DNA of 63,993 nt, the filler included, from Dimargaris cristalligena (lineage: Eukaryota), in assembly GCA_003614675.1 (NCBI GenBank). It is 4 parts of 4 records of this genome, joined end to end, with 100 filler letters (N's around TTAATTAATTAA, not from the genome) between each part and the next. Parts side by side here need not be neighbours in the genome. Positions count along the whole stretch, not along the records: positions 16,947 to 33,783 come from ML002829.1; 3 more parts are not named here. The stretch is one strand, 5' to 3'. Below the pieces are notes generated by a model, which saw only the letters and a list, made by a program, of their open reading frames with translations, was not told where the DNA came from and made no database searches. Positions 11,603 through 50,792 of this stretch are shown here, in pieces. Position numbers and translations under genes: made by a program. Numbering within the stretch: position 1 is the first letter of the stretch; each line of letters opens with the position of its first letter.

Positions 11603-12163
11603 ATGAAGCTCTTTCAAGCCGTCCACGAGTACGCCCAGAACTGGGCCACCGTCACCGCCGCCCATTGGCAGAAATACCCCAATGACAAGACCCCCCATGT
11701 CATTCACGTCGAGACCCTGAACCGGTCCGTCGATCCCGACACGGGTGTCCTCAAAACCGAGCGCCTCATTCTCTGCCGCCAGCCCTGTCCCGCCATCATC
11801 GCCCGGTTCCTGGGTTCCGACGATGTCTCCTATGTGCTCGAATACAGCGAAGTTGACCCCCAGCACAAGGTCCTGCGCGCCGTATCCACCAATCTCACCT
11901 ACCACAATGTCGTGGCCGTCAATGAGGAGCTCACCTACTCCGCCGACACCTCCCAGCCCCACCTGCAGCGCACCCAATTCAAGCAATCCGCCCAGATTAC
12001 CGCCTTTTCCATGATTTCCCGCATCTCCGGCTACGTGGAGGAATTCTGTGTCAAGCGGTTCCACGAGAACGCCCAGATCGGTAAACGTGCCCTTGAACAG
12101 GTGCTTGAGAAACTGGACCAGGCTAAAGTAGCGGCCACTTCGACGACCCATCTTCCCATGTAA
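11603..12163 (+). CDS. UPS2: PRELI/MSF1-domain mitochondrial intermembrane-space lipid transfer protein (Ups2/PRELID3-like)
   Basis: MKLFQAVHEY..NWATVTAAHWQKYPN..TPHV, GVLKTERLI, STNLTY..V..NE.L.Y, RFHENAQIGK.ALEQVL. Strong C3 codon bias. Confidence 0.9.
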   Translation: MKLFQAVHEYAQNWATVTAAHWQKYPNDKTPHVIHVETLNRSVDPDTGVLKTERLILCRQPCPAIIARFLGSDDVSYVLEYSEVDPQHKVLRAVSTNLTYHNVVAVNEELTYSADTSQPHLQRTQFKQSAQITAFSMISRISGYVEEFCVKRFHENAQIGKRALEQVLEKLDQAKVAATSTTHLPM

Positions 12164-16846: not shown

Positions 16847-16946
16847 NNNNNNNNNNNNNNNNNNNNNNNNNNNNNNNNNNNNNNNNNNNNTTAATTAATT
16901 AANNNNNNNNNNNNNNNNNNNNNNNNNNNNNNNNNNNNNNNNNNNN
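16847..16946. other. Artificial contig spacer (100 nt, Ns plus TTAATTAATTAA six-frame stop linker)
   Basis: Identical structure at 33784-33883 and 50693-50792. Confidence 0.97.
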
Positions 16947-17779
16947 TCCCCGGTTGCCCTAGTTGTCCCTATCTGAAGATCAGATAAGAATTGTCCCCGC
17001 CGAAGTGCGTGTTTCACTTAGCTAGTTAGTTTTTCCCACTAAACTGAGGCTGCTCCAGTTGGCCCTGATAAGGTTATCGGGCTATATTACCTTGTGGCAT
17101 TAATTGCAACCACAACAAAGGAATAAAAGGAGAAAGATAGAGAAAACAATTTTCGCATGAAAATTTTTCCTTTCTGCTTTGGGGAAAGTAATATTTTTAC
17201 GGATTTTTTTTCTTTCCCCTCTATTAACATAATATGTTTAAAAAACGTATTTTTTATCAATGAGTGGGATAAAGAGTAAGGGTTGGTAGTATCATAGGGA
17301 AAACGAAAGTGACCCAATCATTGACTATGTACATCAATGCCAGCTCGAAATATATCCAACTACTATAACTATGCCAACTATTCGGCCTCATGGAGAAAAG
17401 TGGATGGGGTGAGTTGTAGGTTATGGAACCATATGAAAAATATTGAGCTAGTTTGAAAGGGGATAAAGTGAGAGACAGAGAGAGCGGGGGGGTCGTATTT
17501 ACTAATTACCGGCAGACATTCCCCAGAACTCATTAATAGTATAAATATTGGTAACTTTCGCCTTCAGTTTCTCAATTTCAATATCATACTCACCCTTACT
17601 CTTACCCTCGCCCCCATCCCCATAGCCATTCCCATATCTTTCCTCCTTGTGAGCACCGTTGTCTACACTACTTCACTACTTAGTCCTTCCCCCCGCTACA
17701 TCGTCAGTCTCGCCCACCCTAAGTCTATTGTCGCCCCCCTCTTCTCCCATTACCCCTATTTACTCCGCCGTTATTCACC

Positions 17780-18121
17780 ATGCGTTTCGTCTGCCCCGGC
17801 ACGCTCGTTCTCGTCACGTCTGTGACGGTGACTCTGGTTCTTGCGCACCCGCTACCCCATGGTTTAGACCACCGCTAGTCCGACGAGTCCGCCACCTACC
17901 TCGTACGTCGTACCCCAACCTCCAGGGTGGAAACCAATGCGCCAATTAATACACCCCCTGCCCAAATAGATATACGTGTTGGCGAAGACAACACGTTCAA
18001 AAAAATTGATCAGTTCAGCACTAAGAAACTCTTGGTCACACTCAAAAGAACTAATGCCAGCAGGTCTTCAAAATCCAATACACGCCGAACTAGTCGTAGT
18101 TCATCAGTGACCTCTTTATAG
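17780..18121 (+). pseudogene. Signal-peptide ORF interrupted by one in-frame TAG (17876-17878)
   Basis: MRFVCPGTLVLVTSVTVTLVLAHPLPHGLDHR*SDESATYLVRRTPTSRVETNAP... stays in frame to the stop at 18121. TATAAATA at ~17540, and CACC precedes the ATG. Confidence 0.55.
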
Positions 18122-19295
18122 AAACTACCCTGGTATATCCGATGGATCCACAGGTTTAGTAGTTAAATATATATATATATATATAAAAAGCTATACACAA
18201 TGATATAAGGGCCATCCTGGCGAGTTATGTCCCCCATTTGTTTCAGGTACGGGTATTTGTGATGAAAATGGGATGTTCTTGAGTACGTTGCATTCTTAGC
18301 CCCACTAACCCATACCTCTAAGGTAATGAAAAAATAAGTTCAATCAACAGTTAATTAATTAATAAATAATAATACTAAAGAATAGATGGCAAGTAACGAT
18401 TTGAGTTAGCCCATCACGATATTGCTGTGACGTGGGGTTTTATATAATGGTACTCGTCTCAACTGTATAAGGTTTGGAAAGTAATTTATATGCGATTATG
18501 TTTACAAATTACGTCTTTTACATAGAAGGGGTTGCTTCAAGCGGATTTTGTTCTATACGGCTATATTGATTTTCTCCTATATTGTGTACATGTTGGGATA
18601 TAAACTCCACCCATCTACCCCCTCCACTCACTCTTGATGGTTAAAAAACAAAAACATTAAGTCGGACCAAGGCCAAAGCAAGGGATAATATGTCTGTAAA
18701 TTAGATTACACTGTGCCCCTCGCCAGTACATGAAAGGGAGTAACTAGCAGGATTCAGCTTATTATAGCGAATTATCAATGGAGGTGGAGGAGTTCCCGGT
18801 TCACCTACTCTTCGTACCAACGTCTTATTATTATACTTATTATTAGCTATTGTAATCTTTTACATGCACCCATAGACGCAGGGCATCGGGTGTATTAATC
18901 ATTGTGTTATAGTATTCTAAATCGACCCCCCTCTCCAAGGAGCTGAGCATCACATTAGCACAATACTAGACTCTATTCGTGGATTTTTTTAAAAAATGTG
19001 GATAAATCTATGATATATTTTGGAAATATATAGGCAAAGGCGGGTTAATGAAGAATATAGCCCTAGGACAACTCGATGCAACATTATAAACTCAATATTT
19101 CGATATAATGCACCGCAGTTTAAGTGAATATAGCACCAACTTGCGGCGGATAATGTATATATACCTAGAAAATATCTGACTGTGTGGACAAAAAAAAAAG
19201 AACCCTGTCCTAAAGACAGCTATAAAGGCCATCAGATATTTATAAACCAAGCCCCATCCATGGGGGTCCAGAGCCCAGGTATTGCGGGAACCCAA

Positions 19296-21872
19296 TTAAT
19301 AGTTATGGCGGGGCTTAAGTTCGGCAATCGCATCATTCATTTTATTGACAACTTTTTGAACCAGCGTGTTGCGAACCAAATAATTCATGGAACCATCCTG
19401 ATGAAGCGAGTCCAATCCAAGGGTCACCACTCCCGCATCCATGGATGCCGCGGTGAGTGACACGTCCTTGGCACTATCACGGTCATTGAAGGGCGAAGCC
19501 GGGGGCCGGACCCATAGGGTCACCTGTCCACTGGCCACGATAGACCAATCGACCGGGGCCACCGTGAAGGCGACCTGCAATATCCGGCCCAAAGCCACAC
19601 AGCGAGCCGTATCCGCCTCCCCCACCAAATCGCCCAAGGCCTGGATATGATCGGCCGGTAGGGGATCCCCTCCGTACCGATTGTACAGCACAAGGGCCAC
19701 ACAGGCGCGTTCTGCCGGGGTTAACGACACTGAGCCCGAGGCCAACACCGGGTAGGCCGACGCTGTGACGGTACGACTGCCCTGGCCACCGGCGAATAGG
19801 GCCAGGCCAGCGGCACTGTCGAGGTTGGCATCGCCAGAGGTGACCAAATTAGCGGTGGTCAGGGCGGCCCAGAGTGCGCGGGATGTCGAGGTGAGTGGGT
19901 GGGATTGTGATTGGGCCGGGATGGTGGCGGAAGCGCTGAGTAAGTGGTAGTGGTAGTCAATGAGTTGGATCCACCGGCGAAGGGCGGCTATCCACGCTTG
20001 GGGCGGGTCGGTCGCCGTCGTAGAAGTGGAAAGGCGGGCAGTGCGGATTGCTCGAATGGCCTCTACCAGTGGGTCCTGATCCCACGACCACCAAGTTGGT
20101 TTCGGGGCCAAGCCTAGAGCCCGAGTCTGGCGTTGTAGGTACAGACCCTCCTCCTCCTCTTTATTCGCCGGGTTACTATTACTGCTAGAGGAGGCCAACA
20201 TGCCAATATCCGCCCCCGGGCGAGGAATTGCGGATAAGAGAGTGGCCAGTACGCCCTGCTGAACCCCCGATTCCGAAAAATACACCCGATCCACCGCGCT
20301 CGACAGCCACGGCTCCAAACTACGTACCAAGAAACACACCGCTGGGATCATCTTCGCCCGCCGTTTACTGATGCCGGGGATTTGTTTCAGCTTCTTAAAT
20401 TTAAATTCCTTGTCCTCTTCGATCCGTCGGACCAGCTCCAGGAAATCGGGTCGACTCAAACTGTACCCGTGCACGATGGGGATGGGTTCATTGCGCGTGT
20501 GAATGGCAATGTAGGCTAGGGCCCGGAACCCGCCGCCGGAGAGATACAGGTTGCGGCCCAGGGTGGCATTTTGGCGGTGGCGCGGGCGGCGATGCTTATG
20601 CCGACGAGTCGAGGCGGCCGTCACGGCGGCGGCCGCAACGGGATCGGCCTTCGATTGGATAGCGGTCAGAATTTCCGAAGCCAGTTTCTGATGGGCCTTC
20701 TTTTCGGGATTAGCATCGAGGCGCTGGGTCAGTACGGCGGCACCGTAGGGGAAGGAATAAAACTGATCCACAGGTACCTGGCCATCATCAGTATAATTGT
20801 CGTTGGATGGCGTGGCAGGTTCAGGTAACGGATGAGACAGAAACGAATCGATCGGATCGATGATCGCTTCCTGATCATTACTGTAGGCCGCTTCGTATTG
20901 ATTAGCCGCTAGTTCGAGACTACCGCCACCCAAATCCATCGTAAAACCATCGAGTTCCGTGAAGCCCGACTGAATCCCCAGTGAAGTAAAATAACTTTCC
21001 TGTTCGGAGGCGATGGTCTGAATCAGCCAACCCGCGGGATCCCAGGCGTACTGAAAACCCACTGGACTCGGCTCCACTGCAGCCACGGTTGTTGACGCGA
21101 ACGACGACGCCAAGCCAGACGACACTGGTGAAAAGGTAGCTGGTTCCCCACCACCACCACTACCACTACCACCGTGGGACCGCGTGGCCTCTCGGATACG
21201 ATTGATCAATTCCAATCGATTGGTGGCTACCCGGGTTGCCTCCGTGGCGACAATGCTAATGGCCTGGACGCGGAATTGCGTGCAAATGGCCTGGAAATAA
21301 GTGAACGTATCGACCACCTGCTGGATAACCGCTTCAGGGATGAACCGCTTAGACGGGTCGGCCGGGTCGGGCACCAGTTCGGCGCTGAGGGAAATGGGGG
21401 CCCGTTGCCGATAGAGGACGGGGAAGTGCCGCAGTGAGGTCAAGGCCCCCTCCTCGCGGGTGAGGTGGGAGGGGCCACCGCCATGGTTGCCGGAGGCCTG
21501 GTGGAAACCATAAATACCGAGACGGATACCGTTGGAACCCATATCCACAATGGCAAACGGAGGTCGTACCAATGTGACGGGGCAGGCGACCATAGTAGCA
21601 GCAGTAGGGTCGGAATCCATAGTTGTGGACGAACCTAGCTGTGGGATGGTAGAGGCGGCTGCTGGTTGAAGGAATGCCGGCGGCGGTGGTGTACAATACA
21701 ACGAGGAAGGAAAGAAGCCCAAAGGGGCGACCGTCGGGGAATGGGTAGTAGAAAAGGGCGAAACCGAAGCAGAAGCTGGGGTGACGAAGAAGTCCGAGGA
21801 AAAAAGGGGAAACGAGCAAGGTCCAACTAATAATACAAGGGACCTCAGCAAGAGGTGGGCAAGTGGCCCCAT
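19296..21872 (-). CDS. RTG2: Ppx/GppA-family protein, retrograde regulation protein 2-like (alternative start at 21620)
   Basis: FAIVDMGSNGIRL, IVATEATRVATN, MDLGGGSLEL, SFPYGAAVLT, LYLSGGGFRAL, VYFSESGVQQG. Confidence 0.85.
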   Translation of the reverse strand: MGPLAHLLLRSLVLLVGPCSFPLFSSDFFVTPASASVSPFSTTHSPTVAPLGFFPSSLYCTPPPPAFLQPAAASTIPQLGSSTTMDSDPTAATMVACPVTLVRPPFAIVDMGSNGIRLGIYGFHQASGNHGGGPSHLTREEGALTSLRHFPVLYRQRAPISLSAELVPDPADPSKRFIPEAVIQQVVDTFTYFQAICTQFRVQAISIVATEATRVATNRLELINRIREATRSHGGSGSGGGGEPATFSPVSSGLASSFASTTVAAVEPSPVGFQYAWDPAGWLIQTIASEQESYFTSLGIQSGFTELDGFTMDLGGGSLELAANQYEAAYSNDQEAIIDPIDSFLSHPLPEPATPSNDNYTDDGQVPVDQFYSFPYGAAVLTQRLDANPEKKAHQKLASEILTAIQSKADPVAAAAVTAASTRRHKHRRPRHRQNATLGRNLYLSGGGFRALAYIAIHTRNEPIPIVHGYSLSRPDFLELVRRIEEDKEFKFKKLKQIPGISKRRAKMIPAVCFLVRSLEPWLSSAVDRVYFSESGVQQGVLATLLSAIPRPGADIGMLASSSSNSNPANKEEEEGLYLQRQTRALGLAPKPTWWSWDQDPLVEAIRAIRTARLSTSTTATDPPQAWIAALRRWIQLIDYHYHLLSASATIPAQSQSHPLTSTSRALWAALTTANLVTSGDANLDSAAGLALFAGGQGSRTVTASAYPVLASGSVSLTPAERACVALVLYNRYGGDPLPADHIQALGDLVGEADTARCVALGRILQVAFTVAPVDWSIVASGQVTLWVRPPASPFNDRDSAKDVSLTAASMDAGVVTLGLDSLHQDGSMNYLVRNTLVQKVVNKMNDAIAELKPRHNY

Positions 21873-23614
21873 ATAAACGAACTACAGTATCTTTGGGACA
21901 CCCCCACACACTCTGGCAAGTAATAAACCACTATTAGAAATAGAAAAGGGATACTTACTATAGGTGCAAAGCATAACCAACGTGGCCTATTTTGGTAATT
22001 AACCGCCACCTTTTACCAGGCAGACATGTTCACTAGGGTCAGTGGACTGGGTTGGTGTAAATACTAAGCGCAGTAATGATCTGTATAGTATACTCGTGGG
22101 TATTGTAAGGGTGAGAGAGTTGGGGTGTGAAAAGGATAGTCGGCGATGCTATTGTTCAACCTCAAACAAAACCTGGTGGGATATATATAAAGATATACAA
22201 ACGAATCAATAAATAACTATATTTATAGGTGTGTGTATAAGAGTAACCCGTATTCCGTCTAAAGAGGCCTTGTTACAAGGAAATGAAAGCGGGTTGCCGC
22301 AAAATAACCCCGTCAGGCGGATCAACTCAACCTGCAGCCTCCTTACCGCACTGCCGGCTAACCAACCAGTCAACGGCCTCCTACAACCACCACCCACGGC
22401 CCGTAGAACGTCGTTGTAGAAGTAGGGGGAGAGCATTTTACGGGGCCACCGCTACTCCCCTTTACCCCCTTAAACTACACCTACCCGGCTACCCCTTCTT
22501 TTTTAAGTACCGATTGGAATCAGCCGATTTACACACAGCCCACCGCGAAGCTGTTGCGGAGAGAGAATAAGTGAGCAAGAAGCCCCCCCCCCCCGCGCTA
22601 TTCTATGACGTCCACCATACCGTGCATAAAAATGGGTCAGATGAGGAGGAGGAATGCGACTATGCTATAATATCCATCGCTCGTATACATGTAGAGGCAG
22701 CCCGATAGAGGTTACGAAACCAATCTATATCTATATATATAAGAATCCTATTTCGGCTTAATTAATTGGTATGTATAGCTTGCTGGGATTATCACCCGAG
22801 GTCCAGCATAAACTCGTTCATTCATCTCCCGACCCCCTAAGAATTCCGGGGTTTGATGGCATTTGACGTCAGTCGATTAGGCTTTTAGGTAATCCGCTTA
22901 TTTGGAACCGCCCTATTGTATATTATACTATACGCCGTGAGGATGATATGAGGGGTAAGAACCGGCGGCGGGGCCATTAGTAAGGGGCACTTGCTTTTGA
23001 TGATGAAAAATACGATTGCTTCTTCCATTGAACCTATTGGCCATACTCACTCGCCCCTTTCCGATCTTAAGATTATATAGGCTTAATTGTCCCTTTAGAT
23101 CTAACATCTCGATGGAAGAATGTGTGAATCAAGAGCGTCCTATCTCTTATTCCCCGGTATTTGGATGGTTGGTACCTGAAATGTCGTCATTTGGAATACC
23201 GAAACACCAGAGGTATTCGCTTGCATTGACAAGGCATGCAAGTTGTTATATTCCCTACGATTGATCAGTAATGCACAATAATATCCGGCAACATAATAAC
23301 CCTTCTAAGGAATACAATAACATTCAATGTATTTACACATTGTTATACTAACCACGTCCATCATAGTTTATTAGATGGCCATATCAGAGAGCAATCTACA
23401 ATTTAGACTGCTGCCTGGGATAGCAAAACAATAATCTAGTTCAAACAAGTCGTAAAAACCCAATTCTCTCCAAAATAACAAATGCACTTCTTTTCTACCC
23501 CACCATAATCCCAAACATCCCAATGAGCGGCTGCTTTTGGTCTATATGGCGTCAGAACGAGAATACGATAGTAAATATATTCATCTCGCCTCCATATACC
23601 GATTTATTCGCAAT

Positions 23615-26600
23615 TTAACTGGTAGAGGATGGTGGTGGTAGGTTATGTGTGGTGTTCGATGCAACTGTGGTATGATCCGCTGTCGGTAAGCCGTTAAACA
23701 TTCCTGCGGCCGTATTGGCCGCCTGCATTCGTTGTAGAAGTGCCAAATGTTGTTGATGCTGTTGATGTTGCTGCTGATGATGAGCAGTTAGGTTGGGCGG
23801 ATGGTTAGCTGCCGCTAAAGCATGCGGGTTCATGAGTAACCCCTGTGCCGCCAATTGCTGCTGCTGGGCAATGTACTGTTGATAGAATTGCTGCTGAGAA
23901 TTGGCGGCGGACATGTTATTAATCGAAGGACTGCCGTTATTACCGCCCATACCGCCTACACCACCCATACCGACCCCGCTTTCTCTTCTAACGCTATTGG
24001 CCAAATGATCCGCCGCCAAAGCTGCTTGAAGGTCGTTATGTCTTTGGCGCTGCATCAGCTGGTTCGACAAGTGTGCTTGAAGTGCAAGTTGTTGCTGTTG
24101 CTGCTGATGTTGCTGTTGTTGCTGTTGTTGCTGATGGCGATGGAGTTGTTGTTGCAACTGCTGCTGTTGGGCTAGAGCGTAAAGCTGGGCTTGGGTCAGA
24201 GTCGACATATTAGGATGGACACCAATGGCAGCACCACCACTACCAACTCCGCTATTACCGGCCATTGATACGGCGATTGACGAACCATTTTGGGTAACCG
24301 AGCCCGCCGACTGCTGGGAAGACATAGCGGTAGCCGAGTTGTGATGGAGTTGGGTCATGGCAGAATTAGCTAGGTTACCCGTGACCGAGGTTGAGCCTCC
24401 TCCTGCTACCTGCTCGCTATAACCGAGCGGCACAGTGGACAAGTACTGCTGGGCAGCTGAGGTCCTTCGCGCCATATCGTTGGCCATTGGTGCGCTGATG
24501 TTAGGTAAATGACCACCACCGCCGCCGCCGAGGAGTGAGGATACTGATATTGGGGAATATAATGAGGCGGTCGACACACCTGAGGAATGGTTGTTGCTCA
24601 TGGGTGAGGATGTCGAGGACAGGCCATTCCCACCGCTGAGTTGGCCGGCAGCGGCACTCACCATCTGTTGTTGATATTGCTGAAGGGCCTGCAGGTTAGT
24701 CAAGTTAAACATGTGCTGCATAGAGGCCAAATCAGTGGGATTACCTATACCAGCAGGTGTGGCGGTGTTGAAATTAAGGCCCCCTCCCTGCATCATATAT
24801 TGAAGGTAGTTAGGGGTAAGGTCCTGGGCCATATCCAGTAGATTCGATTGGCTCATCAGGGATTGTTGCTGCTGTGCCGATTCCGAGGGGAGGGGGTGGC
24901 TAATAGACAAGCCCATTCCATTGGCGGTAGGTTGGCCCAAGTCGGTGGAACCAGGCGCACTGCCATTGCGTGCAGTTGGAATCGTTGACGATTCGCTCCG
25001 GGTCTGGGCCAATCCCGGGAATTGATTGTCAAACGCGGCTAGCACGGTAGGTTTCAATGCCGTCAAAAAAGTGGCCCAGTCTTCGGTATCGGGAAGTGCC
25101 GGGAATTGATCACGAAGCGTCTGGCGAAAATGGCGGGCACACACATAGTTCTGGGCCCAGTATTTGCCGATATCCTGGAGAATGTGAAAAACCTGGATGA
25201 GGTAGTCCGCGGCAGTCGCCACGCGGGTCCGGTCCGGTCCCCGGGGGTTGTTATTGGCACCGTGGCCACTTGGGCTGCGGTCCGGAACCAACAATACACC
25301 CCCAATATTATCGATGAGAACAAAGCCGGCGTTAATCAGACACATGCCAAAGAAGCTATTATAGTACTGGATAGACAAGTGCTCCGATAGTTCCATGAGT
25401 TGCACAATCGCTTCGGCTGATTTCCAGCATAGTTCCTGGGCGTTCAGTAACGTGCGGGGGTCCAAGTGAACTTGGGAAAGGAAGTGGCTGTCCGTCCGAT
25501 TGGTGATGATCACGGCCGTATAGTACAATGAGTGTAGGTTAATCAGATAGGAGCAGCTGGCGGGGTTAGAGCGCACGTGGGATTCGGACCAGCGTTGACC
25601 GGGTGGGATTTGCAGATGTGGGGGTAACTTCGAGAACCAGTCCACTAGCTCCTGGGTCAGGTTAGGTGCCCCAAGGAGCCATTTGTGGGCACTAATGGCC
25701 ACGCGGGATCGGAATACACTAATTTTGGAAATGATAAGGATGAGGTCCACATCGTAACCAGTCAAGTTCATGGCGGGCCGGGGGGGTTGCTGGGCCCGAC
25801 GGGCGTTGATAAGGGCCCGCTGGTGAAGGCCCATATTGGAATCTGTCATCTCGGAGTCGCCATTGCCGTTATGTCCAGCCGAGGACATATGTTTATTTAG
25901 GGAGGGTGGAACGGGGGATGTAATGTCGCTGAGGGACTGGCCAGTCGGGCTCATTTCCTGTATGGACCCGTTGCCGTTGTTACCGCTACTGTACGTAGCT
26001 ACGCCATCCCCGTCATCGCCTACCGAGATGAAATCCCGGATAACTTCTTCACTGCTCGGGTGGTTTACTTTGCAGTCGTCTGGGTGTAGTGAGGGAGGGC
26101 GATTCATGGCTAGGGAAGTGAGATTTTCGGTGATAAAGGTAAGCCACCACACCCGCCGCTTAGTTTCCCGCTGTTGCCATTCCCGGGCGGAGTAGGACCG
26201 GTGGGGGTCAGCATCGATACGGTTAAGCCCCATGCGCTGGGCCATGCGCGTGGCGATGCCAATGTACATCCATGCCGTTTCCTTTCCGCGGCCAATTTCA
26301 TAGAGGCCCAGTAGAATAAACGCCTGGATGTGGTCCAGCGAAGTGTGGCTCATGGCATTGACAGCCAGACCCTTGGCTTTTTCGAAGTAGACCTCGCCGG
26401 AACTGTACGGGGGGTCACGAATGACCAGGGACAGTGTCGAGTGACGACACGTGATCGCCAGGATGGTGTTGAGAAAGATGTCGGAAATCAGGTTCTGACG
26501 CCACCGTTTCATAAAGTCGGTGTAGGTGAAAACGCTCAGGAAGGGGTGCTTCGTTTTGAAGAAGAGTTCCACCAATGAGTTGACCACGGAGGGTTCGAAA

Positions 26601-27802
26601 TAGCGATCCGTATCGTTGCCTAGTCCCACGGGCGGGGCGGCCACGATACGCAGCTTGTTGGCATGGCCGCCCAAGTCGTGGGCGTGGTGGGACGAGTCCT
26701 GGCTGGGACTATCGCTGGACCCATTGTAGGACCTCTTGTTACTGTGGCCAGTGGTCTGAGTCGAGTTAAATCCGGGGGTTTGAGGGGTCAGGGGTGGGGG
26801 CTGTAACCCAGTACTGAAGGGCATAGTAGACGTTGAGCTACTGGTAGAGTGCTGTCGACCCAGGGTGGAGGAGGTACCAACAGCGGCAGCAGGGGCCGGG
26901 GCCATTGAAAGACTTCCCCCGTGAGCAGTGGCAGAGGGTACGGTGTTTAGCCCCAGTAAACCCATCGAGGGATATTCGGCAACGTTAGGGGGAGAGGATG
27001 ATGACGAGGAAGAGGTGACCAACTCGGCCAGGCGGCTTGCGGACAGGGTACCAGCCATATTGCCCCCATTGGCCATTTGGAGGGCGGGATTTTGTTGCAT
27101 CTGCATGTTCTGCAGGTGCTGTTCGAGGGTCTGAATCCGCTGGAACAATTCATTAATGTTTTTACTACTGTCATCTAAACCAACCAGGCCGAGGCCCAGT
27201 GACTGAAGGGACTCCATGGACAGAGGGCTTCCCCCGCCGCTCCCATCACCATTTGACCCATTCGGTAGGTGGGAGGACGAAAGACCGGTAGGGATACCGG
27301 CGGCCATGGCGGCGGCATTGACGTTGGGTAGTGGGTTGGGGGAATCGAGAGCGGAGGCCGAAAAATCCAAGGTGCCGAAGCCCGAGACGGTGGCGGGTCC
27401 GGACATATTGACCATAGTCGGTAGACCCCCCGGACCGGTGGATGGCGTCGATACCATCCCGGGGGGCGACTGAAGGTGGTGGTGACCCGAGGGGGCCGGT
27501 TGAAAAGAGAAGGTATTGGTCATTGTGTTGACATCGGGGCCACCACCGCCCATAGGTGGGGCTCTACCGCTGACGCCCTCAAGGATACTGCCTAAACCGT
27601 CCGCACTTCCGATGGTTTTGCGCGAACGTTTGCCGCGCACCCAGGGGCTGTAGTGGCAGGGGATTTGGTTGCGCCGACATGTACTGCACTCGGGTTTTTC
27701 GCCGGCGCATTTGATTTTCTTTTTGCGGCAAACGTCACAGGCGCGCATGAGCTTGGGCTCAGTGCAATCCCCGATACCAAGCAGGTCGTCTTGAAGACTC
27801 AT
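23615..27802 (-). CDS. Zn(II)2Cys6 transcription factor with fungal-specific TF domain and polyQ tail, 1395 aa
   Basis: RACDVCRKKKIKCAGEKPECSTCRRNQIPCHY; AWMYIGIATRMAQRMGL...ETKRRVWW; Q/H-rich C-terminus. Confidence 0.95.
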   Translation of the reverse strand: MSLQDDLLGIGDCTEPKLMRACDVCRKKKIKCAGEKPECSTCRRNQIPCHYSPWVRGKRSRKTIGSADGLGSILEGVSGRAPPMGGGGPDVNTMTNTFSFQPAPSGHHHLQSPPGMVSTPSTGPGGLPTMVNMSGPATVSGFGTLDFSASALDSPNPLPNVNAAAMAAGIPTGLSSSHLPNGSNGDGSGGGSPLSMESLQSLGLGLVGLDDSSKNINELFQRIQTLEQHLQNMQMQQNPALQMANGGNMAGTLSASRLAELVTSSSSSSSPPNVAEYPSMGLLGLNTVPSATAHGGSLSMAPAPAAAVGTSSTLGRQHSTSSSTSTMPFSTGLQPPPLTPQTPGFNSTQTTGHSNKRSYNGSSDSPSQDSSHHAHDLGGHANKLRIVAAPPVGLGNDTDRYFEPSVVNSLVELFFKTKHPFLSVFTYTDFMKRWRQNLISDIFLNTILAITCRHSTLSLVIRDPPYSSGEVYFEKAKGLAVNAMSHTSLDHIQAFILLGLYEIGRGKETAWMYIGIATRMAQRMGLNRIDADPHRSYSAREWQQRETKRRVWWLTFITENLTSLAMNRPPSLHPDDCKVNHPSSEEVIRDFISVGDDGDGVATYSSGNNGNGSIQEMSPTGQSLSDITSPVPPSLNKHMSSAGHNGNGDSEMTDSNMGLHQRALINARRAQQPPRPAMNLTGYDVDLILIISKISVFRSRVAISAHKWLLGAPNLTQELVDWFSKLPPHLQIPPGQRWSESHVRSNPASCSYLINLHSLYYTAVIITNRTDSHFLSQVHLDPRTLLNAQELCWKSAEAIVQLMELSEHLSIQYYNSFFGMCLINAGFVLIDNIGGVLLVPDRSPSGHGANNNPRGPDRTRVATAADYLIQVFHILQDIGKYWAQNYVCARHFRQTLRDQFPALPDTEDWATFLTALKPTVLAAFDNQFPGLAQTRSESSTIPTARNGSAPGSTDLGQPTANGMGLSISHPLPSESAQQQQSLMSQSNLLDMAQDLTPNYLQYMMQGGGLNFNTATPAGIGNPTDLASMQHMFNLTNLQALQQYQQQMVSAAAGQLSGGNGLSSTSSPMSNNHSSGVSTASLYSPISVSSLLGGGGGGHLPNISAPMANDMARRTSAAQQYLSTVPLGYSEQVAGGGSTSVTGNLANSAMTQLHHNSATAMSSQQSAGSVTQNGSSIAVSMAGNSGVGSGGAAIGVHPNMSTLTQAQLYALAQQQQLQQQLHRHQQQQQQQQHQQQQQQLALQAHLSNQLMQRQRHNDLQAALAADHLANSVRRESGVGMGGVGGMGGNNGSPSINNMSAANSQQQFYQQYIAQQQQLAAQGLLMNPHALAAANHPPNLTAHHQQQHQQHQQHLALLQRMQAANTAAGMFNGLPTADHTTVASNTTHNLPPPSSTS

Positions 27803-29016
27803 TTCTGGCCAGGCCGGGTTAAAAGAGAGGGGGTATTTTTAAAAGGATAAAAAAGGAAAGAGAGAGAGAGGGTGTGTGTGTGTGTGTATGCGAGAATAAG
27901 GAGGGTTCAAAAAGAACGGACCTGGAATTCGAGAGACTGGGGTTCCTCCAGGGAAGCAAGGGATAAGTTGAGAGGGGCCAAGGCGTATAAATAGAATAGG
28001 CGCTGTATTAAAGGGGTCTATGGGTGGTGAACTTCGCAAAGGGTTGGTTAGTGGACGGGGGTAAGAGAGGAACCAGACAAATCGACGGAGGAGGGGTGAG
28101 AGGAGGATTAGGACTCGGGCAAAAGATGTAGTGAGTATATATCGAGAGTATCATAAGCAAAACGCCAAGAAACAAGAAAGGAATTCCAGACGACTGGTAA
28201 GTAAGTGTGTGAGGCTAGTTGAGAAGGGGAAATAATATGTGTAACGCAGGTTAAGTCGAATGGCTTCGGGAACTCGGGGAAGGAATGTCCGGAGGGGGAG
28301 GAACGGCACAGTAGGCGAATACGAAAAAATGGGGAGAAATAGTGAAGAAGAATATAAGGTCAGTAGTAGTAAAGAGAAAAGATAGGGAGAAGGGGGGCTT
28401 ATCCTATATTCCTCTTCCCTTGGCATGTAACCTGCATATATTAGCCATGGCGAGTGTATGCGCATATAGCATATACCCAATATAATAGGGGAGGATTTGT
28501 AGGAGGACGCCCTCATTCACTATTGCTATTGCGTATTCAGCACCAGCAGTGCCAATCAGCCCATCGCGCTATTTTTACCTGATTAATACAAAAGAGCCTG
28601 GAAGGCATGCCGCGGGCGCTGGGCAGCCTTGGCTGTGGTTGGTTCACTGGACTGGACTGGAGAGGGGAACAACTAATCACAGTGCCCCGACCGCAGTCTG
28701 CCCCGTTCGTTTCTCATGGTTGCACGCCTCCTCCAACTGGGAGAGGAAGTGGTGTAAGAAATTTCTCTCTACTGCGGGACCTTTTTATTAACAACTGGTT
28801 GTTGGTATGGTCTATATAGTAGATAATATCGAGATTATAATAAGTAAGGTCAAGAGGGCTTATTTTACCTATCAGCATAGACACACCCAAGCGGGGGAGT
28901 TGGTTGTTGTCACACAGAGCCACCCCTCCTCATTCAGCTTCTCACTCTCCGAATCTCCCTCCCTCCCTCCCTTCGGCTCCACTGCTGCACAACGCCCTTC
29001 AGAAGCCAACCCAGCT

Positions 29017-31241
29017 ATGGGGGCCCCTTCCAAATCAGCCCCCGTTTCTGTCCGCTTTATCTACATATACCCCCATTTTCCCTATGCCACTTCACTGCCG
29101 ACTTCCTCCGAGCCGCAACCCCCCTCATTAACCCCCTGTTCGCGGGAGGGTCGGTCGAACGAGGAGGATGTCCTTTCGGCCATTTACGATTGTCCCCATG
29201 TCTTTCCCAGTTGTCCCGGCTGTTGGCGCAAAATGGCCCGAGCTGACACGGCTCCAAGCCAATCGCCACCCCTCGCTCGGCCCGCCGCCGCCACCACCAC
29301 CACCACCACCACCACCACCACCGTGACTTGTCGCCGCTGCGGCATAACCACGGCTAACTCAAGGTTCATTCGGGTTACTTATTCTGTTCGCGCCCTGACG
29401 GTGATTAACCAACAGCTTCGTTTAGGTAAACCAAATTATAGCTTGATTTCCAAGCATCCCACCACCACCCTACTATTTAATATCAACTGCCCTCGTTTCC
29501 ATCACTACTGCTCGGGGCTGCGCTGCGCCGGCGGAGTCCCTTACCCAATAGCTGATTACGCCAGCATCCTACCGTCCCACTGCGTATTACCCAAGGAATT
29601 GTGACCCAAATGGCAGATTCTTACTCGTATTGGTATTATCGGTATTATTTTATTCCGGGGGCCCTCGACCAAAATATCCACTACACTATATACTATCAAC
29701 TAGTGGTAATGTTCGGCTCCCAACTCGATCAAATATTCGGTCTGTCGGCCGGCGATTATTACCGATGGTTCGGTCGCTATTCCCTATCAACTGGCCAGCC
29801 CGCCCACGCTCTCGTCCGGCAACTACTACGGACCAGATTGGTGGGATCCACTTGGACGGCTACCACCCGTGCGGGAAATCGCTCCATCCATCAAACCAAC
29901 CTCGCTCAAACTACGGGGTCAGGCCGTGTACCGTCGCAATGGACATCACTTACCATCGATCTCATCGGCCCCGAGTACCAGCCCCTGTGTTATACGCTTA
30001 CGGGGGTCACCCGATTTCTACAGGCGAACTGTTTGTATTATAGTGATATGCAATCGTGGGCTTGGGCCCAGGCCAACCGACTGCAAAAATACACCTACTC
30101 GGCCGACCCAAAGTCGGTATTCCCCCCGAGAGGCACAGGCCTAGATTCAACCAAGGACACCAAACCCGATACCACTGTGGTATTACCCCAGATCAAACCT
30201 CGTGTGGTTAGACGGCAGACCACCGAGGCAGTTCAACGGGAAATTGATGGTTGGCTAGATATGATAACCCGGGCTGCAGTAGGTCGCCTATTGACCAGTG
30301 TATCTGTCATTTGTAAATCACAGAATCATTCCTCTACCAATTTAACGCAACTGTCTCATGTGCCCCATATCCCCGCCATCGACCTGTTCGACGATGACCT
30401 GGACAAATACCTTGCAGAGCTAACTGTGGCCGATTGGAAGGCTCCTGACACTGACTCCGCCCAATTGAAGCAAGCGCGTCATCGTGGTGGTGGGTCCGAT
30501 TTGCTACCCAGCCCAACACCAGACCTGTCTTCCCTGCTTGAGCAGGTACAAGTTATAGATCCCACGGATCCCCGACGAGCTGACCAGAATCAGGCTATTC
30601 CCCCGCAATTAAATGGCCTTCCACCCCAATCCCCGGGCTCCCCAACCGTCGTGGTTACTGACTCCCCACTCAAGGTAGCCTCCCCTCTCGAATCCTCCTC
30701 CTCCTCCACCATCTCCCCATCCGTTGGGGAAATAGTGGCCCCTTTAACCAGCCCAACAAACTTATATGACCATTTCCTCGATGATGCCGATTTTCCAGCC
30801 AATCTACTGGCCCAACTCTCTGATTTCGAACTTATGGGCTGGACCCCCCAAAAATCCCCAACAGTAACCCCTGGCAATGCTTCGGCGATCCCGTCCTCTA
30901 CCCATATGTCTGTTAGTGAGGGACTTGGTCAAATACCTGCCCTCCATCCGCCTAAAGAGCCACTGTTGCCTTCCCCTGCACCGTCCGGATTATACAATCT
31001 GAACCGTGGTGGGGCTCAGGCACGGTTAGCTATCCATGGTACCCAGCACCCCCCACCCCCACATACCCCATCAGCAGTGGCAGTGGTAACTGATTCCAGT
31101 CCCCCCGAATCTACTGCCCCGCCTACTATTTCAGTACCACCAAAGCCATTCCCGGCTCCCGTAAAATTGGCCTCAAAAGTTTTTCATTACACAACCCCCA
31201 AAAAACCCCCCACCAGATATAACACCAATAAAATCGAATGA
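29017..31241 (+). CDS. DDIAS/noxin-like OB-fold (RPA1-C-like) zinc-ribbon protein; exons 29017-29425 and 29704-31241
   Basis: VFPSCPGCWRKM...TCRRCG...VTYSVRAL joined by an in-frame GT-AG intron (29426-29703) to VVMFGSQLDQIFGLSA, matching the DDIAS N-terminal pattern. Long S/P-rich disordered tail. Confidence 0.7.
29290..29322 (+). repeat. (CAC/ACC)n microsatellite encoding poly-Thr between the two CxxC pairs
   Basis: ccaccaccaccaccacc... read directly. Confidence 0.9.
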
Positions 31242-31753
31242 TGTATGTATGATAAAGGGGCGGGGATGTAATGGCTTCATATTGGTTGGCATAATCTTGT
31301 TGACGGCTTTAACTGTATTTTTTTCACATGCCAATTTTTTTGGAGTGGGGGAGGGAGTTATATATTTCATAGACAGCCAACTCATGACGTGTCACACTAC
31401 TGCGGTACTTTCTCCGCCTCTGTGTCTACTTCTGTATTTGGGCATAAGCGGACAACGCCATACGCATATTGGCAGAGTTGCCTAGATGCACTTTGTAATT
31501 ATCCCTTCCCCAAAGCTCAGCCCATATATTTCACTCGCTAGCAGAAGCCATTAACCCTTTTGGCCGTGGCAATGGTCCCTGCAGTTTGATTCTGTAAGTA
31601 TAGCCCATACCAGCCATTTAAATGATACTCGGTAGAGGTAATGTAAGAAAGGAAGATACTCTCAAGTTTATCGGTCCATTCCCCGCCTTATTTTTAAGGC
31701 GGGCCCCATGGTTTAGTGAAAATGGGCCCCACTGGGGCTTAGTAATGGATGTT

Positions 31754-33282
31754 TTAAATCTGGTAAACCCGTACCGCCAACTGACCTGCACTATTTAAAT
31801 GCACTATTCTATACTGATTAAAAACCACATCACAGTCATGATCAACCGAGGACGGCCAAATCACTGATTTAGTATCGAGCCACTGACCGACGGGCTGCCA
31901 CCCGAAGGACTGACAGCAGTACCGAACCTTGGCCAAGATCGGGCGCCGGAACAGGGCCATGAAAGGCCACAACCATTGGGCCACGGTAATATTACCGTAT
32001 TGAGCGGCCACCACCATGGTCAGAATCTGGTCACTGGAGCTCCAGGCGGGATGGCCCCACACCGCCAGCCGGATTTGGCGGAGCCACATGGGTCGGATTT
32101 GGGGTTTAATGGTGGCCCCGAAGATCATACTGGTGGTTAGGACTTCCGTCAATCCATCCGCAAGGTACTGGACCATGATCCGGCGGCGGCGTTCAGCTAG
32201 AGAGGCTAAATGCGGAGCTCGGCGGATGGGATGGTGGGCCATGGGCTGTTCCTGGATGATCGTAATCATGCCGACGTACGTTGCGGGAAGCCAGTCGCCG
32301 AGGTGGCGGAGGAGAGCTTCCACAAATGAATCGCCGGAGAAAAAGGCCGAAGCGGCCCAAATGGCCCGCTCGATATTCGCAATGACTAGTCCGTCCTCTG
32401 GTATAACGGCTTCCCCACTGGTTTCACCAGCCCGCACTTTTTCTTTTATTTCCCGTTTCCCTGCCCATACCCATGCCTCCTTGCCGTCGTCATCGTCGTA
32501 GTAGTCATTGTTGGGGGGCCCTTGTTGGGCTAAATACACCAGGGGATAAAAGGCCTGTAGCATCGTATCATCTAGTGTATGCAGAATCACGGCATGGGTT
32601 TGGTGGTCACGTAGGGTTTTTAGGGAGGGTCGAAAGGCCTCCAGAGTGGCTTGGAAATCGGAATTGTCGAGGATGGTTCGGGAGGGCGGACGTCCCAGTT
32701 TTCGTACTTGGCCCAAGGCATCGTACCGTAGGTTCCAGAGACCCTGCATAAGCAGATTGTTGACGAGAATGGGGCGAATATAGCCTTCGACTAAGGGGAA
32801 CAGCTGCTTATAGGCTTCATCGGCTTGGGACTCCACCAAGGGACTTGTGAGTTGCTTCTCGTCCATCTTCATAAGATAATCGAACGCCTGTTTGGTTTAA
32901 TGGGTTTTTTAAAACACGCACATATATATATATATAACAGCGATGTATAGCTACCTACAATTAGAGGAAATATTAATAGACACTGGTAAAAATAGGTGAT
33001 AATTCAATTTGTCGAATTTCACCCCTCAGTACATGTCTATTTTAATCAAAAACCTACTTTTTGGTTCCGGCGGATGCGTTCCTGGGTGATTATAGCTTTC
33101 CAGGTTGGACTAACTTGGCTAGCCGTCAGTTGGTCTTCGAACGTCTTGACATTGTTTAACGCCAGACCCACTACCTCGGTGGGTAGGTCATCAACGGTTT
33201 GTTGGGCAGTTATTGGGTTTAATTGAACCAACACTATCCCCACTAACGACCAGATGGTCAAGGCCCACTTCGGAGCAAACAT
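31754..33282 (-). CDS. Secreted F-box-like effector candidate; exons 33282-33058 and 32887-31754 (~452 aa)
   Basis: Signal peptide MFAPKWALTIWSLVGIVLVQLNPITA, then DDLPTEVVGLALNNVKTFEDQLTASQVSPTWKAII (F-box pattern). Phase-0 GTAGGT...CAG intron. Ankyrin-like AAQYGNITVAQWL near the C-terminus. Confidence 0.7.
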
Positions 33283-33783
33283 CAGTATAACTATCACCGC
33301 TAAACAGATACGGTGAATACAGTTGGGATTAAGCGCGGTATCGGAAGTCAGAACAAAGTAGAAATAAGCTAAAGGGGTGAATCGTCAAAACTTAGCTGGC
33401 GGGGACCCACTCAATATTTAAATAAGGGGTTTCGCTCTGAATAGCATGTGCTGCTTCCTCCATTTCCTCCCTCCTTTCCCCATAAGACCGTTCACACACA
33501 CACACACATATATATATATATACCCCCATATATACCTTCATATGTACCACCTAACACTGTCCCTGTAGAGCTCATCATTGTGGAGCCATTTTTGCAAGTA
33601 GGAAAACATTGGTCCGTTACTAAATATGATAGTCTGCTCAGTTACGAGTCTTGCGGTATTTCCATATTTACCCTTCGGCGTAGCAATTGCCGGAGGGAAG
33701 CATTAACAGTCTGCGACTGCATCCGGCTTTATTGGGCGTTGATAGCCTAAAAAAATTGGAGCAGGGTGGGGGAGCTGAAATGG

Positions 33784-33883
33784 NNNNNNNNNNNNNNNNN
33801 NNNNNNNNNNNNNNNNNNNNNNNNNNNTTAATTAATTAANNNNNNNNNNNNNNNNNNNNNNNNNNNNNNNNNNNNNNNNNNNN
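33784..33883. other. Artificial contig spacer
   Basis: Ns plus TTAATTAATTAA. Confidence 0.97.
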
Positions 33884-42247: not shown

Positions 42248-43562
42248 TTAGAGGGTTTTGGATTTAACCGATCGGGAATAGGTGTTGATGGCAAATTGTA
42301 CGAACAGGTAGATCAGCGGAAGTAGATAGAGGACATTGACGTGTGCGGCAAATCGGGAACCCTCGGTGACCAGGCAGTTGGGTACGAATAAGTAACCGAC
42401 GGCCATGAAAATGCCAAGTAGGAACTGAGTGATTTGCATGAATGTGATGTAAGGTTTGCCCGGGGGATGAAGACCGACGGTTGTGCAGAGATAGTAGAAG
42501 TACATGATGGTATGCACCAGGGAATTGAATACCACGAAGATCCAGATGGGAATGGAACGGAACTGAATGCCAGCCCACATGCAGAGAATAGCGCCCGAGT
42601 GGTGGTAGGTTTGCAGGGTTGACGAGCGACGACCTGTTCGCGGGAGTAAGCGGCGCCAACGGGAGACACAAGGTGAGAAGAAAGGAATAAATGAGAGGTA
42701 TTGGTTAGATGAGTGTACATTTTGCATGATTGGTGTTGGTAGCCAGCTACAGACGGCCTATTTGACCAAAATAGGTAACCGGGGATATACTATATCGAGC
42801 AAGCGCAGCCAATCAGGTCAGATCAAGAAGGGGGTGATGGTTGGTGGCGCACCCATTCACCGCCCCCCCTTCATTCATTCCGAGCACTGTTCGTATAATT
42901 TCACTCGATTCGGAAAAATCGGGTGGTTAGAAGAAGACGAGCAACAGTAGCAGCAGTAAGCACATCGTTGTGCCATGGATATATAAATGAATATATATAT
43001 ATATATAGTCTCCAAACAAGTTACCTTTTAGGAGGATGATGATGGTGTCGATGATTTCGTAATACTTGGACAGGTAAAAGAGGTAGCCCCAGTAGTACAG
43101 CCCGGACCGCCAGAATTTTTCCTCGGTATCACATAGGACGCCGTGCCAGGAGTATTCGTTTTGGACGCGCTGGTGGAGGGTGGTGACGGCGTGGTAGAAA
43201 GTGACAGCCGAGTACACACAGAGGAGTAGGTTGTGAAGAACGACAAAGGTGGTGAAGGCCATTGACTGAGTCCAGTGGGGTTGTTTTGGAAGGGCAGTCT
43301 TGGCCGAGGCTGGCGTTGTAGCAGTGGTAGTAGTGCCAACAGCCCCTTCGGCGGCCTTTCGGTACCGGGCCTGAACCCGGGACAGTCCCCCGGTGGGCTG
43401 TTGGGTGTTGATGTACTTGACGGTGGCGGCGTACACGATGGCGGTGAGGACGGGTGTTTTCCAGTGCATGGCCCAGGGGAAAAGACTCGGCCAGGGTAGG
43501 GATTCGACGGGAATGGGCGGCGGCGGAGGGGCCATGGTCAGGTAGTGCAGGAAGTTCAGCAT
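42248..43562 (-). CDS. Fatty acid elongase, GNS1/SUR4 (ELO) family; exons 43562-43025 and 42633-42248
   Basis: FYLSKYYEIIDTIIILLKG|RRSSTLQTYHHSGA, NSLVHTIMYFYY, YITFMQITQF. C-terminal KSKTL resembles a dilysine ER retrieval signal. Confidence 0.93.
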
Positions 43563-43841
43563 GGCGAACGGAGCTGGGTGGGTGGGGGTGGGAGGAAGAG
43601 GGGGATTGGTGATAATGGTAATGTAGAGGAAATAGGCCGGACGGAAGAATAGGTGGAAGGAGAGGAGGGTAAATAAATGGTGGATGAGGGAGGGAGGGGG
43701 TCCAAATAATGATATTATGAGAGAGATACCCTTAGGCTAGGAGCACGAAGAAAAAAGAACAGTAGATATATATCTATCAACAGGCACATCAACGCAGGGG
43801 TGAGATTAGGTGGGTAAATGGGAGGGAGACGTGGTGTATTT

Positions 43842-45846: not shown

Positions 45847-46584
45847 ATGTCGTCTACCACCCCTCGCACCATTGTCATTGCCATTAACCCAAAGGCAGAC
45901 GAAACCAAGCATACCCTGCAATGGGCCATTGACAACTTCCTCAACCCCGACCGGGACTCGGTTCAGCTGGTCGCTGCCCTGTGTCTGGAGTCCGACTTGG
46001 ACGCTATTTCCCTCGGTAAGGGCTCCCTCAACTGTATACATACAACCCTAGGCTAAGCAGCACTTTTCCACTCTCTTAAAGAGAGTACTCGTGTCTTAAA
46101 AATAAAAGGGGGGGGGTTCACCTATAAGAGGGACTATGCTACCCACTCTACTGGCTAACTAACTCTAATCTACTCCCTGTATTGCCTTTTTTCTTACCTC
46201 TGTATCCGCGCACCGGTTGGCGTATTCCGGGCCAACTCCACCCTCCTCCTCCCTGTAGGTATCAATGCTGGTGACCTGGCTGGCTATCTAGTGGGCCTGG
46301 AGGAAGAGAATGAAGGCGAAATCACCAACCTCATTAGCCAGTACGCTGCTCTTCTGAGCGCGGCCCATATCAACCACGAAAGCGTCATTCTCAAGGGCCA
46401 TACCGACGTTCGCGACATCGTGGTCAATTACATCAACGATCTCAAGGCCCATACTTTAATTGTTGGCAGTCGCGACCTGGGTGTGTGGAAGCGTCTGTGG
46501 CTCGGCAGTTTCAGCGACTTCTGCGTCCATTCTGTCCACTGCCCCGTCATTGTCGTTAAATCGCCCGACGCGGAAGAGCAGTAG
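45847..46584 (+). CDS. Universal stress protein (UspA family); exons 45847-46015 and 46259-46584
   Basis: RTIVIAIN...TLQWAIDN; LIVGSRDLGVWKRLWLGSFSDFCVHSVHCPVIVVK; GTAAGG...CTAAC...TAG intron. Confidence 0.92.
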
Positions 46585-50692: not shown

Positions 50693-50792
50693 NNNNNNNN
50701 NNNNNNNNNNNNNNNNNNNNNNNNNNNNNNNNNNNNTTAATTAATTAANNNNNNNNNNNNNNNNNNNNNNNNNNNNNNNNNNNNNNNNNNNN
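50693..50792. other. Artificial contig spacer
   Basis: Ns plus TTAATTAATTAA, preceded by a poly-C contig end. Confidence 0.97.

Follow-up and report, generated by a model that had tools for sequence, protein, structure and literature searches.

A Dimargaris cristalligena gene that joins a putative signal peptide to an F-box and a helical body of no known family: a candidate effector directed at a host SCF ubiquitin ligase

In this work we analyzed a two-exon gene in a 63,993 nt stretch of the genome of the fungus Dimargaris cristalligena (assembly GCA_003614675.1; the whole stretch, filler included, is called the window below). The gene encodes a protein of 452 aa in which a hydrophobic, secretion-type leader is followed at once by an F-box and then by a large helical body, and this order of parts is, in our judgment, very likely real. 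It lies on the minus strand, from an ATG at 33282–33280 to a TAA stop at 31756–31754, and is therefore placed exactly where the original prediction, a reading of the DNA alone, had put it. That prediction had proposed a secreted F-box protein which redirects a ubiquitin ligase of the SCF (Skp1-Cul1-F-box) type in a host cell. We found that the gene belongs to a family that is restricted to D. cristalligena, and we consider below how far the structure of this family agrees with such a role.

Exon 1 (33282–33058, minus strand) translates into 75 aa, MFAPKWALTIWSLVGIVLVQLNPITAQQTVDDLPTEVVGLALNNVKTFEDQLTASQVSPTWKAIITQERIRRNQK, and includes the start codon, the hydrophobic leader and the whole F-box. 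Exon 2 (32887–31757, minus strand) translates into 377 aa, which form the helical body. They are separated by a phase 0 intron of 170 nt (33057–32888, minus strand; GTAGGT...AACAG) that contains a (TA)n run and in which an in-frame stop would be met three codons in if it were read through. The G+C content is sharply lower inside the intron (30%) than in the exons (49–54%). The splice junction, RIRRNQKA|FDYL, is common to both public models of the gene and can be aligned without gaps with five paralogues. We accepted it because both models use it, the paralogues are colinear across it and the composition drops within the intron; the joining of the two exons, which had been postulated from the sequence, is well supported on the same grounds. 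It had also been claimed that a signal peptide followed directly by LPTEVVGLALNNV..FEDQLTASQVSPTWKAII appears after splicing. The order of the two elements was borne out, but both are already contained in exon 1, and the splice lies downstream of the F-box, linking it to the body.

The first of the public models, P0003, is a 452-aa NCBI record of D. cristalligena named 'hypothetical protein', whose splice is identical to the predicted one. The second, P0014, describes the same locus as a protein of 460 aa and bears the UniRef name 'F-box domain-containing protein', a label also given to two of the paralogues, P0013 and P0009. The exon 2 protein was 100% identical to P0003 over the matched length in a protein search, and the window protein differs from P0003 by two residues, A41V and R269C. 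Exon 1 of the window matches both P0003 and P0014 except for one strain difference, A41V.

The Pfam family PF00646 (F-box) matched residues 31–72 (33192–33067, minus strand; exon 1) with 24.9 bits (E 1.8e-5) over profile positions 2–42 of 43, above its curated gathering cut-off of 20.5 bits, which confirms the F-box proposed earlier. P0003 was also above the cut-off, with 23.9 bits. The F-box signature opens with Leu-Pro and includes Val/Trp of the third helix, all of them Skp1-contact positions in Skp1-Skp2, and the corresponding residues L33-P34, V57 and W61 are all in place. Helices at residues 35–43, 48–57 and 59–82 were predicted in both AlphaFold2 models, that of the full-length protein and that of exon 1 (predicted local distance difference test score, pLDDT, 65.5).

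When the exon 1 model was compared with the VIA-align library of 48,161 representative chains, six F-box chains were present among the 50 listed matches, aligned over residues ~24–75 with Z values of 3.0–3.7, which is the noise range for small helical models; they had the highest sequence identities (16–27%) among the matches listed. These chains were 5ibk_E (Z 3.7, root mean square deviation 2.8, 48 residues), 9o04_G (FBXO42, Z 3.5), 9xzj_F (FBH1, Z 3.4), 5k35_A (Legionella AnkB with Skp1, Z 3.3, root mean square deviation 3.7 over 49 residues, 16% identity), 9cb3_A (cyclin F, Z 3.2) and 6w66_B (FBXL17, Z 3.0). A language-model search with residues 27–100 placed an F-box cluster at the top (0.91), which can be taken as a lead only. 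The search of exon 1 against PDB sequences gave a best E of 0.26, to an unrelated regulator. The models are thus consistent with a three-helix F-box fold and do not prove it.

Classical signal peptides for the endoplasmic reticulum comprise a positive n-region, a hydrophobic h-region of 7–15 residues and a polar c-region in which positions -1 and -3 are small. In the leader, MFAPK precedes an uncharged core of 14 residues, WALTIWSLVGIVLV (residues 6–19), and QLNPITA|QQ follows it, as delimited by a hydropathy and run-length script. The putative cleavage site, placed by eye as a heuristic, precedes QQ and follows A26, with A at position -1 and I at -3; residues 1–26 (33282–33205, minus strand) would then constitute a cleavable signal peptide. 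The positive-inside rule relates the charge of the flanks to the side of the membrane. Here K5 stands ahead of the core and an acidic flank (..TVDD) behind it, and therefore the F-box side is predicted to be lumenal or extracellular. The core of 14 residues is too short for a typical membrane span, and together the short core and the charge pattern fit a cleavable signal peptide with a translocated C-terminal side.

In the AlphaFold2 model, residues 1–28 have pLDDT values below 50 and are detached from the body. Outside the leader no comparable hydrophobic segment was found, hydropathy over 19 residues reaching 1.25 at most, and the protein does not end in a KDEL/HDEL-type sequence. We also weighed mitochondrial targeting and rejected it: the leaders of the family are hydrophobic rather than amphipathic and Arg-rich, and the flank behind the core lacks positive charge. 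On these sequence features, the protein probably enters the secretory pathway, with cleavage and secretion presumed to follow.

An exhaustive phmmer (HMMER) search among 1.84 billion representatives (E<=0.001) yielded seven proteins including the cluster of the query, all of them from D. cristalligena and most present in both public annotations. The six relatives had E values from 8.9e-24 to 8.2e-4 and aligned to the query with 20–26% identity. By sequence, this is a species-restricted family of at least seven diverged paralogues. A tblastn search of P0001–P0003 against the window revealed no paralogue there, only the gene itself. Word-indexed protein searches proved insensitive: the exon 2 query returned only its own cluster, and the family profile and P0006, for each of which scoring was limited to the 8000 candidates with the most shared words, returned only two members and only itself, respectively.

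The N-terminal arrangement recurs within the family. Six of the seven members start with M(R/K) and a hydrophobic core, and the seventh (P0012/P0007) is truncated N-terminally inside the F-box in both annotations. A small-x-small site is followed within 1–10 residues by LPxEL in P0006 (YSA|A), P0013 (VSA|K) and P0009 (VPA|Q), and an LP-containing F-box stands 1–10 residues after the leader in four members out of seven. The LP pair is aligned in these four; it is absent from P0004 and P0005, and P0012 is truncated at this point. The F-box Trp is aligned in six members. F-box scores below the threshold were obtained for P0006 (17.5 bits, F-box-like) and P0009 (13.7 bits).

P0004 and P0005 are a tandem duplicate, as their locus tags are adjacent (H4R33_003870 and 003871). 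Both have lost the LP pair and have kept the body motifs (LYPLVEGYIK and LDDxMLEAFYPL) and a conserved C-terminal module, which in the query comprises residues 401–452 (31912–31757, minus strand) as defined by the family alignment and holds five of the columns that are invariant in the family (G404, W405, L412, C427, G443, R448 region). The retention of the body suggests that it can bind a partner independently of the F-box. There are two to four cysteines per protein in the family, and two of them are invariant: C399, just upstream of the C-terminal module, and C427. Such a pair is compatible with a disulfide formed in the secretory pathway. Restriction to one species, a tandem pair and decay of the F-box in two members together make up a pattern that resembles the evolution of effectors.

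The same data can be viewed differently, with the protein secreted or lumenal and its F-box a relic that does not bind Skp1. The family would then act outside the SCF system, for instance as cell-wall or interface proteins, or, by means of the body, as binders or inhibitors of a factor that the host secretes or carries on its surface. We know of no F-box partner along the secretory route or in the extracellular space; moreover, the Pfam signal is weak or undetectable in six of the seven members, the body outlived the LP pair in P0004 and P0005, and the invariant cysteines fit extracellular life. Yet the query exceeds the curated cut-off over the full length of the profile, and LP and W persist in four and six members, respectively, despite identities of 20–26%, as would be expected if the positions that contact Skp1 were under selection. 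Apoplastic proteins, moreover, are not known to be typically large, all-helical and poor in cysteine. We regard a relic F-box as unlikely, although its probability is appreciable.

The two public models share the central intron and differ at both ends, and the choice between them is essential for the interpretation of the leader. In the contested 5' region (33578–33283, minus strand), P0014 starts at an ATG at 33578, has an exon to 33536 and resumes with an in-frame extension at 33370–33283; its 5' intron spans a (TA)n(TG)n microsatellite and reaches to about 33371. As a result, 43 extra residues are placed ahead of MFAPKW. The G+C content at the third position (GC3) of these 43 codons is 18/43 (0.42) versus 0.61 for the 452 accepted codons, with a binomial P of 0.009 at the coding rate and of 0.68 at the composition of the flank. 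No such N-terminal extension was found in the paralogues in either annotation; they start straight at the leader. The 452-aa model is favoured over P0014 because the GC3 of the extension is non-coding-like and no paralogue is extended. With regard to repeats, the (TA)n run of the intron of the gene is located at 32921–32936, and a (TG)n(TA)n microsatellite in the 5' flank at about 33490–33535, within the 5' intron that P0014 proposes.

In the contested 3' region (31914–31426, minus strand), P0014 splices from a GT at 31914 to an AG ending at 31482 (433 nt) and continues into a terminal exon of 17 codons (31481–31429) with a stop at 31428–31426, and the last 52 residues are thereby swapped for 17 unrelated ones. 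The residues G404, W405, L412, C427, G443 and R448, which are invariant in the family, are deleted by this splice. For this reason we judge the 3' end of P0014 to be almost certainly wrong, probably through mis-prediction of the splice. These differences have a practical side: under P0014 the leader is not N-terminal, and a secretome screen built on this model would probably miss the gene.

The gene is situated on a piece of 16,837 bp (16947–33783), of which only 501 bp precede the ATG, and an error in the N-terminal part of the model has to be considered. The true start could be the ATG at 33578, as in P0014, or could belong to an exon beyond the contig end, in which case the hydrophobic helix would be internal and the product a lineage-specific F-box protein of the ordinary, cytosolic type. 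The disagreement of the two annotations and the proximity of the contig end leave room for this, the frame ahead of the ATG is free of stops for 34 codons, and the ATG at 33578 has A at -3 where that at 33282 has C. However, 34 open codons are expected by chance in about one case in five (an estimate, (61/64)^34), and the composition of the 43 extra codons would be improbable for coding sequence. The annotation that proposes the upstream start also fails at the 3' end, and the paralogues begin directly with the leader in both annotations. An artefact of this type therefore seems to us improbable.

The leader could also be an uncleaved segment that anchors an endogenous F-box protein in the endoplasmic reticulum or another organelle membrane of Dimargaris, where the protein would serve as a local SCF receptor on the cytosolic side. 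Human FBXL4 is said to be such a case, an F-box protein on the mitochondrial outer membrane. This would agree with the cytosolic or nuclear location of SCF partners, with P0014, in which the leader becomes an internal hydrophobic stretch of 28 residues, and with P0005, whose uncharged N-terminal stretch of 29 residues resembles a true membrane span. The charges flanking the core in P0003, P0006, P0013 and P0009 nevertheless predict that the C-terminal side is translocated rather than cytosolic, and from the pattern under the P0014 start (..CIHR before, ..TVDD after) the F-box side would still be expected to be translocated. In four of the six leaders the cores have 11–16 residues, which is short for a membrane span, and an F-box located 1–10 residues past the core would be pressed against the membrane. 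Besides, SCF receptors with an endogenous role are as a rule shared by related fungi, whereas the exhaustive search revealed no relative of this family outside the species. A membrane anchor is thus rather unlikely, and translocation of the F-box side through a cleavable signal peptide is the reading that we follow below.

The part of the protein behind the F-box (residues ~75–452) is almost all helix in the AlphaFold2 model built with the seven-sequence family alignment (pLDDT 76.6; predicted template modelling score, pTM, 0.77), in agreement with the helical body expected from the sequence. In exon 2, a low-confidence acidic/charged insert at residues ~201–237 has no counterpart in most paralogues. 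The body had also been called ankyrin-like, and this was not confirmed: it matched no Pfam family even at E<=10, and a profile self-comparison revealed no internal repeat, where ankyrin proteins would show one of 33 residues (the second alignment had a probability of 0.3%). The hints at ankyrin were all non-significant. In the PDB search with the family profile, the best match was the ankyrin structure 1n11 at a non-significant E of 0.064; ankyrin chains in the noisy VIA-align list had Z values of 4.0–4.7; and ankyrin neighbours in the Atlas scored 0.91–0.94 with few shared features and a recognition value below the reliability mark.

Comparison of the full model with the PDB by Foldseek gave nothing at E<=0.001 (best E 0.32), and VIA-align gave only generic helical-repeat matches, the best of which (CNOT1, Z 6.2) is within the noise for helical proteins. 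The body thus appears to be a helical domain of no known family, for which ankyrin is only a weak lead. In a Foldseek search of BFVD, Pandoravirus F-box and ankyrin proteins were on top, with a non-significant best E of 0.07 and template modelling (TM) scores of 0.13–0.18. Horizontal transfer from giant viruses was considered and rejected as unsupported, as no match in the Atlas or BFVD was significant. It should be added that a motif of acidic residues followed by (F/Y)PL occurs twice in the body, at residues 94–118 and 178–201 of P0003 (about 32680–33003 of the window, minus strand; ADEAYKQLFPLVEGY and DDTMLQAFYPLVYLA). It is kept in the paralogues, and the self-alignment of the two copies is not significant (0.3%).

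The same contig carries a gene for a Zn2Cys6 transcription factor (23618–27838, minus strand) and a Ppx/GppA-family gene (19299–21881, minus strand). Between them and the studied gene there is an open reading frame (ORF) of 561 aa (29556–31238, plus strand), which is Pro/Ser/Thr-rich towards its end, belongs to no Pfam family and is convergent with the gene, with ~510 bp between the two stops. No other F-box ORF was found among the 35 ORFs scanned with Pfam out of the 56 ORFs of >=110 aa in the window, those outside the scan being mostly overlapping or antisense.

The window is composed of four contigs (about 16.8, 16.8, 16.8 and 13.2 kb) separated by N44-TTAATTAATTAA-N44 spacers at 16847–16946, 33784–33883 and 50693–50792; therefore, genes that flank a spacer are not neighbours. 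The other contigs contain, among others, a PRELI-like gene (11561–12160, plus strand), a fatty-acid elongase (ELO, GNS1/SUR4) in two open frames that are consistent with an intron (42251–43736, minus strand) and a universal-stress-protein domain (46159–46581, plus strand).

D. cristalligena belongs to the Dimargaritales (Kickxellomycotina). It is listed among biotrophic mycoparasites in the genome paper (PMC6784888), and the earlier guess of fungus-on-fungus parasitism agrees well with this. As the secretory pathway offers no F-box partner that we know of, a translocated protein with a selectively maintained F-box makes most sense in the cytosol of another cell. According to the mechanism proposed here, the 452-aa protein would enter the secretory pathway through its short, cleavable N-terminal signal peptide and would be exported, most plausibly where the parasite touches a Mucorales host or faces it through haustoria, which D. 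cristalligena presumably forms in such hosts. Inside the host cell, residues 31–72 would act as an F-box mimic and dock on host Skp1/Cul1; fungal Skp1 is highly conserved. The fast-evolving body (residues ~75–452) would pick a host protein for ubiquitination, or might just sequester it.

The complete chain of secretion, host uptake, Skp1 binding and SCF redirection is a possibility to which we give somewhat less than an even chance. Several observations weigh against it. The PF00646 cut-off is passed by the query only, and the Pfam F-box scan of the family gave no match in four of its seven members. Structural comparison lends the F-box little help: the Z values of the F-box chains do not rise above noise, and Foldseek found no F-box match in the PDB for the exon 1 model (one row, E 6.3). 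The cleavage site comes from inspection by eye and a hydropathy script alone. If P0014 with its 43 residues before the leader is right, the leader becomes an internal signal-anchor and the protein is possibly membrane-bound. The gap between leader and F-box leaves no room for a known host-uptake motif, and the neighbours of the gene (Zn2Cys6 factor, Ppx/GppA) are ordinary housekeeping genes and do not form an effector cluster. The effector interpretation put forward originally is partly supported: the architecture on which it is based is real and recurs in a family of at least seven members, and the ankyrin nature of the body was not confirmed.

Several systems of this kind have been described in other organisms. 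Among the closest are the SSGP-71 proteins of the Hessian fly (Mayetiola destructor), which are reported to have an N-terminal F-box and repeats and to bind host Skp, some members being F-box-less (PMC4617103). They form a large family and share with the Dimargaris proteins the origin in a eukaryotic parasite, an N-terminal F-box with a target-binding body, the lineage-specific distribution and the presence of F-box-less members. The differences are that SSGP-71 has a body of leucine-rich repeats and not a non-repetitive helical domain, and that its host is a plant and not a fungus. The exhaustive search revealed no sequence relationship between the two families. SSGP-71 proteins reportedly carry secretion signals.

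Among bacterial effectors, Legionella pneumophila AnkB resembles the Dimargaris protein in that the acting protein begins with the F-box and continues with a binding domain made of helices; AnkB works as a mimic of host F-box proteins. It is, however, injected by a type IV system without a signal peptide for the endoplasmic reticulum, is much smaller and has true ankyrin repeats. VirF of Agrobacterium is said to be an F-box effector of the same kind. The GALA/RipG proteins of Ralstonia likewise combine an N-terminal F-box with a domain for target binding, their partners in the host are SKP1-like proteins, and the F-box of RipG7 is needed for virulence (PMC4617103). Unlike the Dimargaris family, GALA/RipG and VirF are bacterial type III/IV substrates with leucine-rich-repeat bodies, and no homology between them and the Dimargaris family was detected.

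F-box/ankyrin proteins of giant viruses (Pandoravirus and others) are of similar size and were the top-listed neighbours in the viral-structure and language-model searches, none of them significant; in contrast to the Dimargaris protein they have no signal-peptide context. Ordinary cytosolic F-box proteins of fungi share with it the Pfam F-box and the LP...V...W signature. They are not known to have a secretion-type leader, and their F-box is usually followed by WD40, leucine-rich repeats or other known domains. They differ further from the Dimargaris family in that the latter is confined to one species among the 1.84 billion representatives. All matches at E<=0.001 were to D. cristalligena and the PDB sequence searches gave no F-box effector, so that no homology to described F-box effectors was revealed. 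On present sequence comparisons, the likeness to F-box-mimic effectors is one of architecture and not of descent.

In the open-access text searched we found no paper that combines 'Dimargaris' and 'F-box' and none that describes an effector of Dimargaris. No 'F-box' passage was present in the main text of the genome paper (PMC6784888), of the Kickxellomycotina comparison or of the zygomycete secretome paper. The open-access titles and abstracts listed for secreted or F-box effectors likewise describe no fungal effector that combines a signal peptide with an F-box, and yielded bacterial cases. The description of the gene as part of an undescribed system is thus fair for fungi within the open-access literature, while the principle is known from bacteria and the Hessian fly; what is new is the body, the route of secretion and the pair of kingdoms involved.

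It can be proposed, at a level that we would call quite tentative, that with this gene a family of secreted F-box mimics is described for the first time in fungi, and for the first time in a parasitism of one fungus on another, the gene being its founding member. At least seven rapidly diverging exports, made of a signal peptide, an F-box and a new helical fold, would plug into the Skp1-Cul1 machinery of the Mucorales host; regulators of host defence or growth would be degraded or trapped, and the F-box-less paralogues would be pure binders.

The ways in which biotrophic mycoparasites of early-diverging lineages manipulate the fungi they live on have hardly been described. F-box mimicry has been proven in bacteria, viruses and one insect, and a fungal version, if true, would add a new kingdom pair. 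Should the hijack idea fail, there would still be a lineage-specific F-box family with a body that belongs to no known family and an unexplained secretion-type leader. If it is true, D. cristalligena would offer a testable entry point to this biology: seven genes that share one conserved motif for docking, and Skp1 as the conserved partner in the host.

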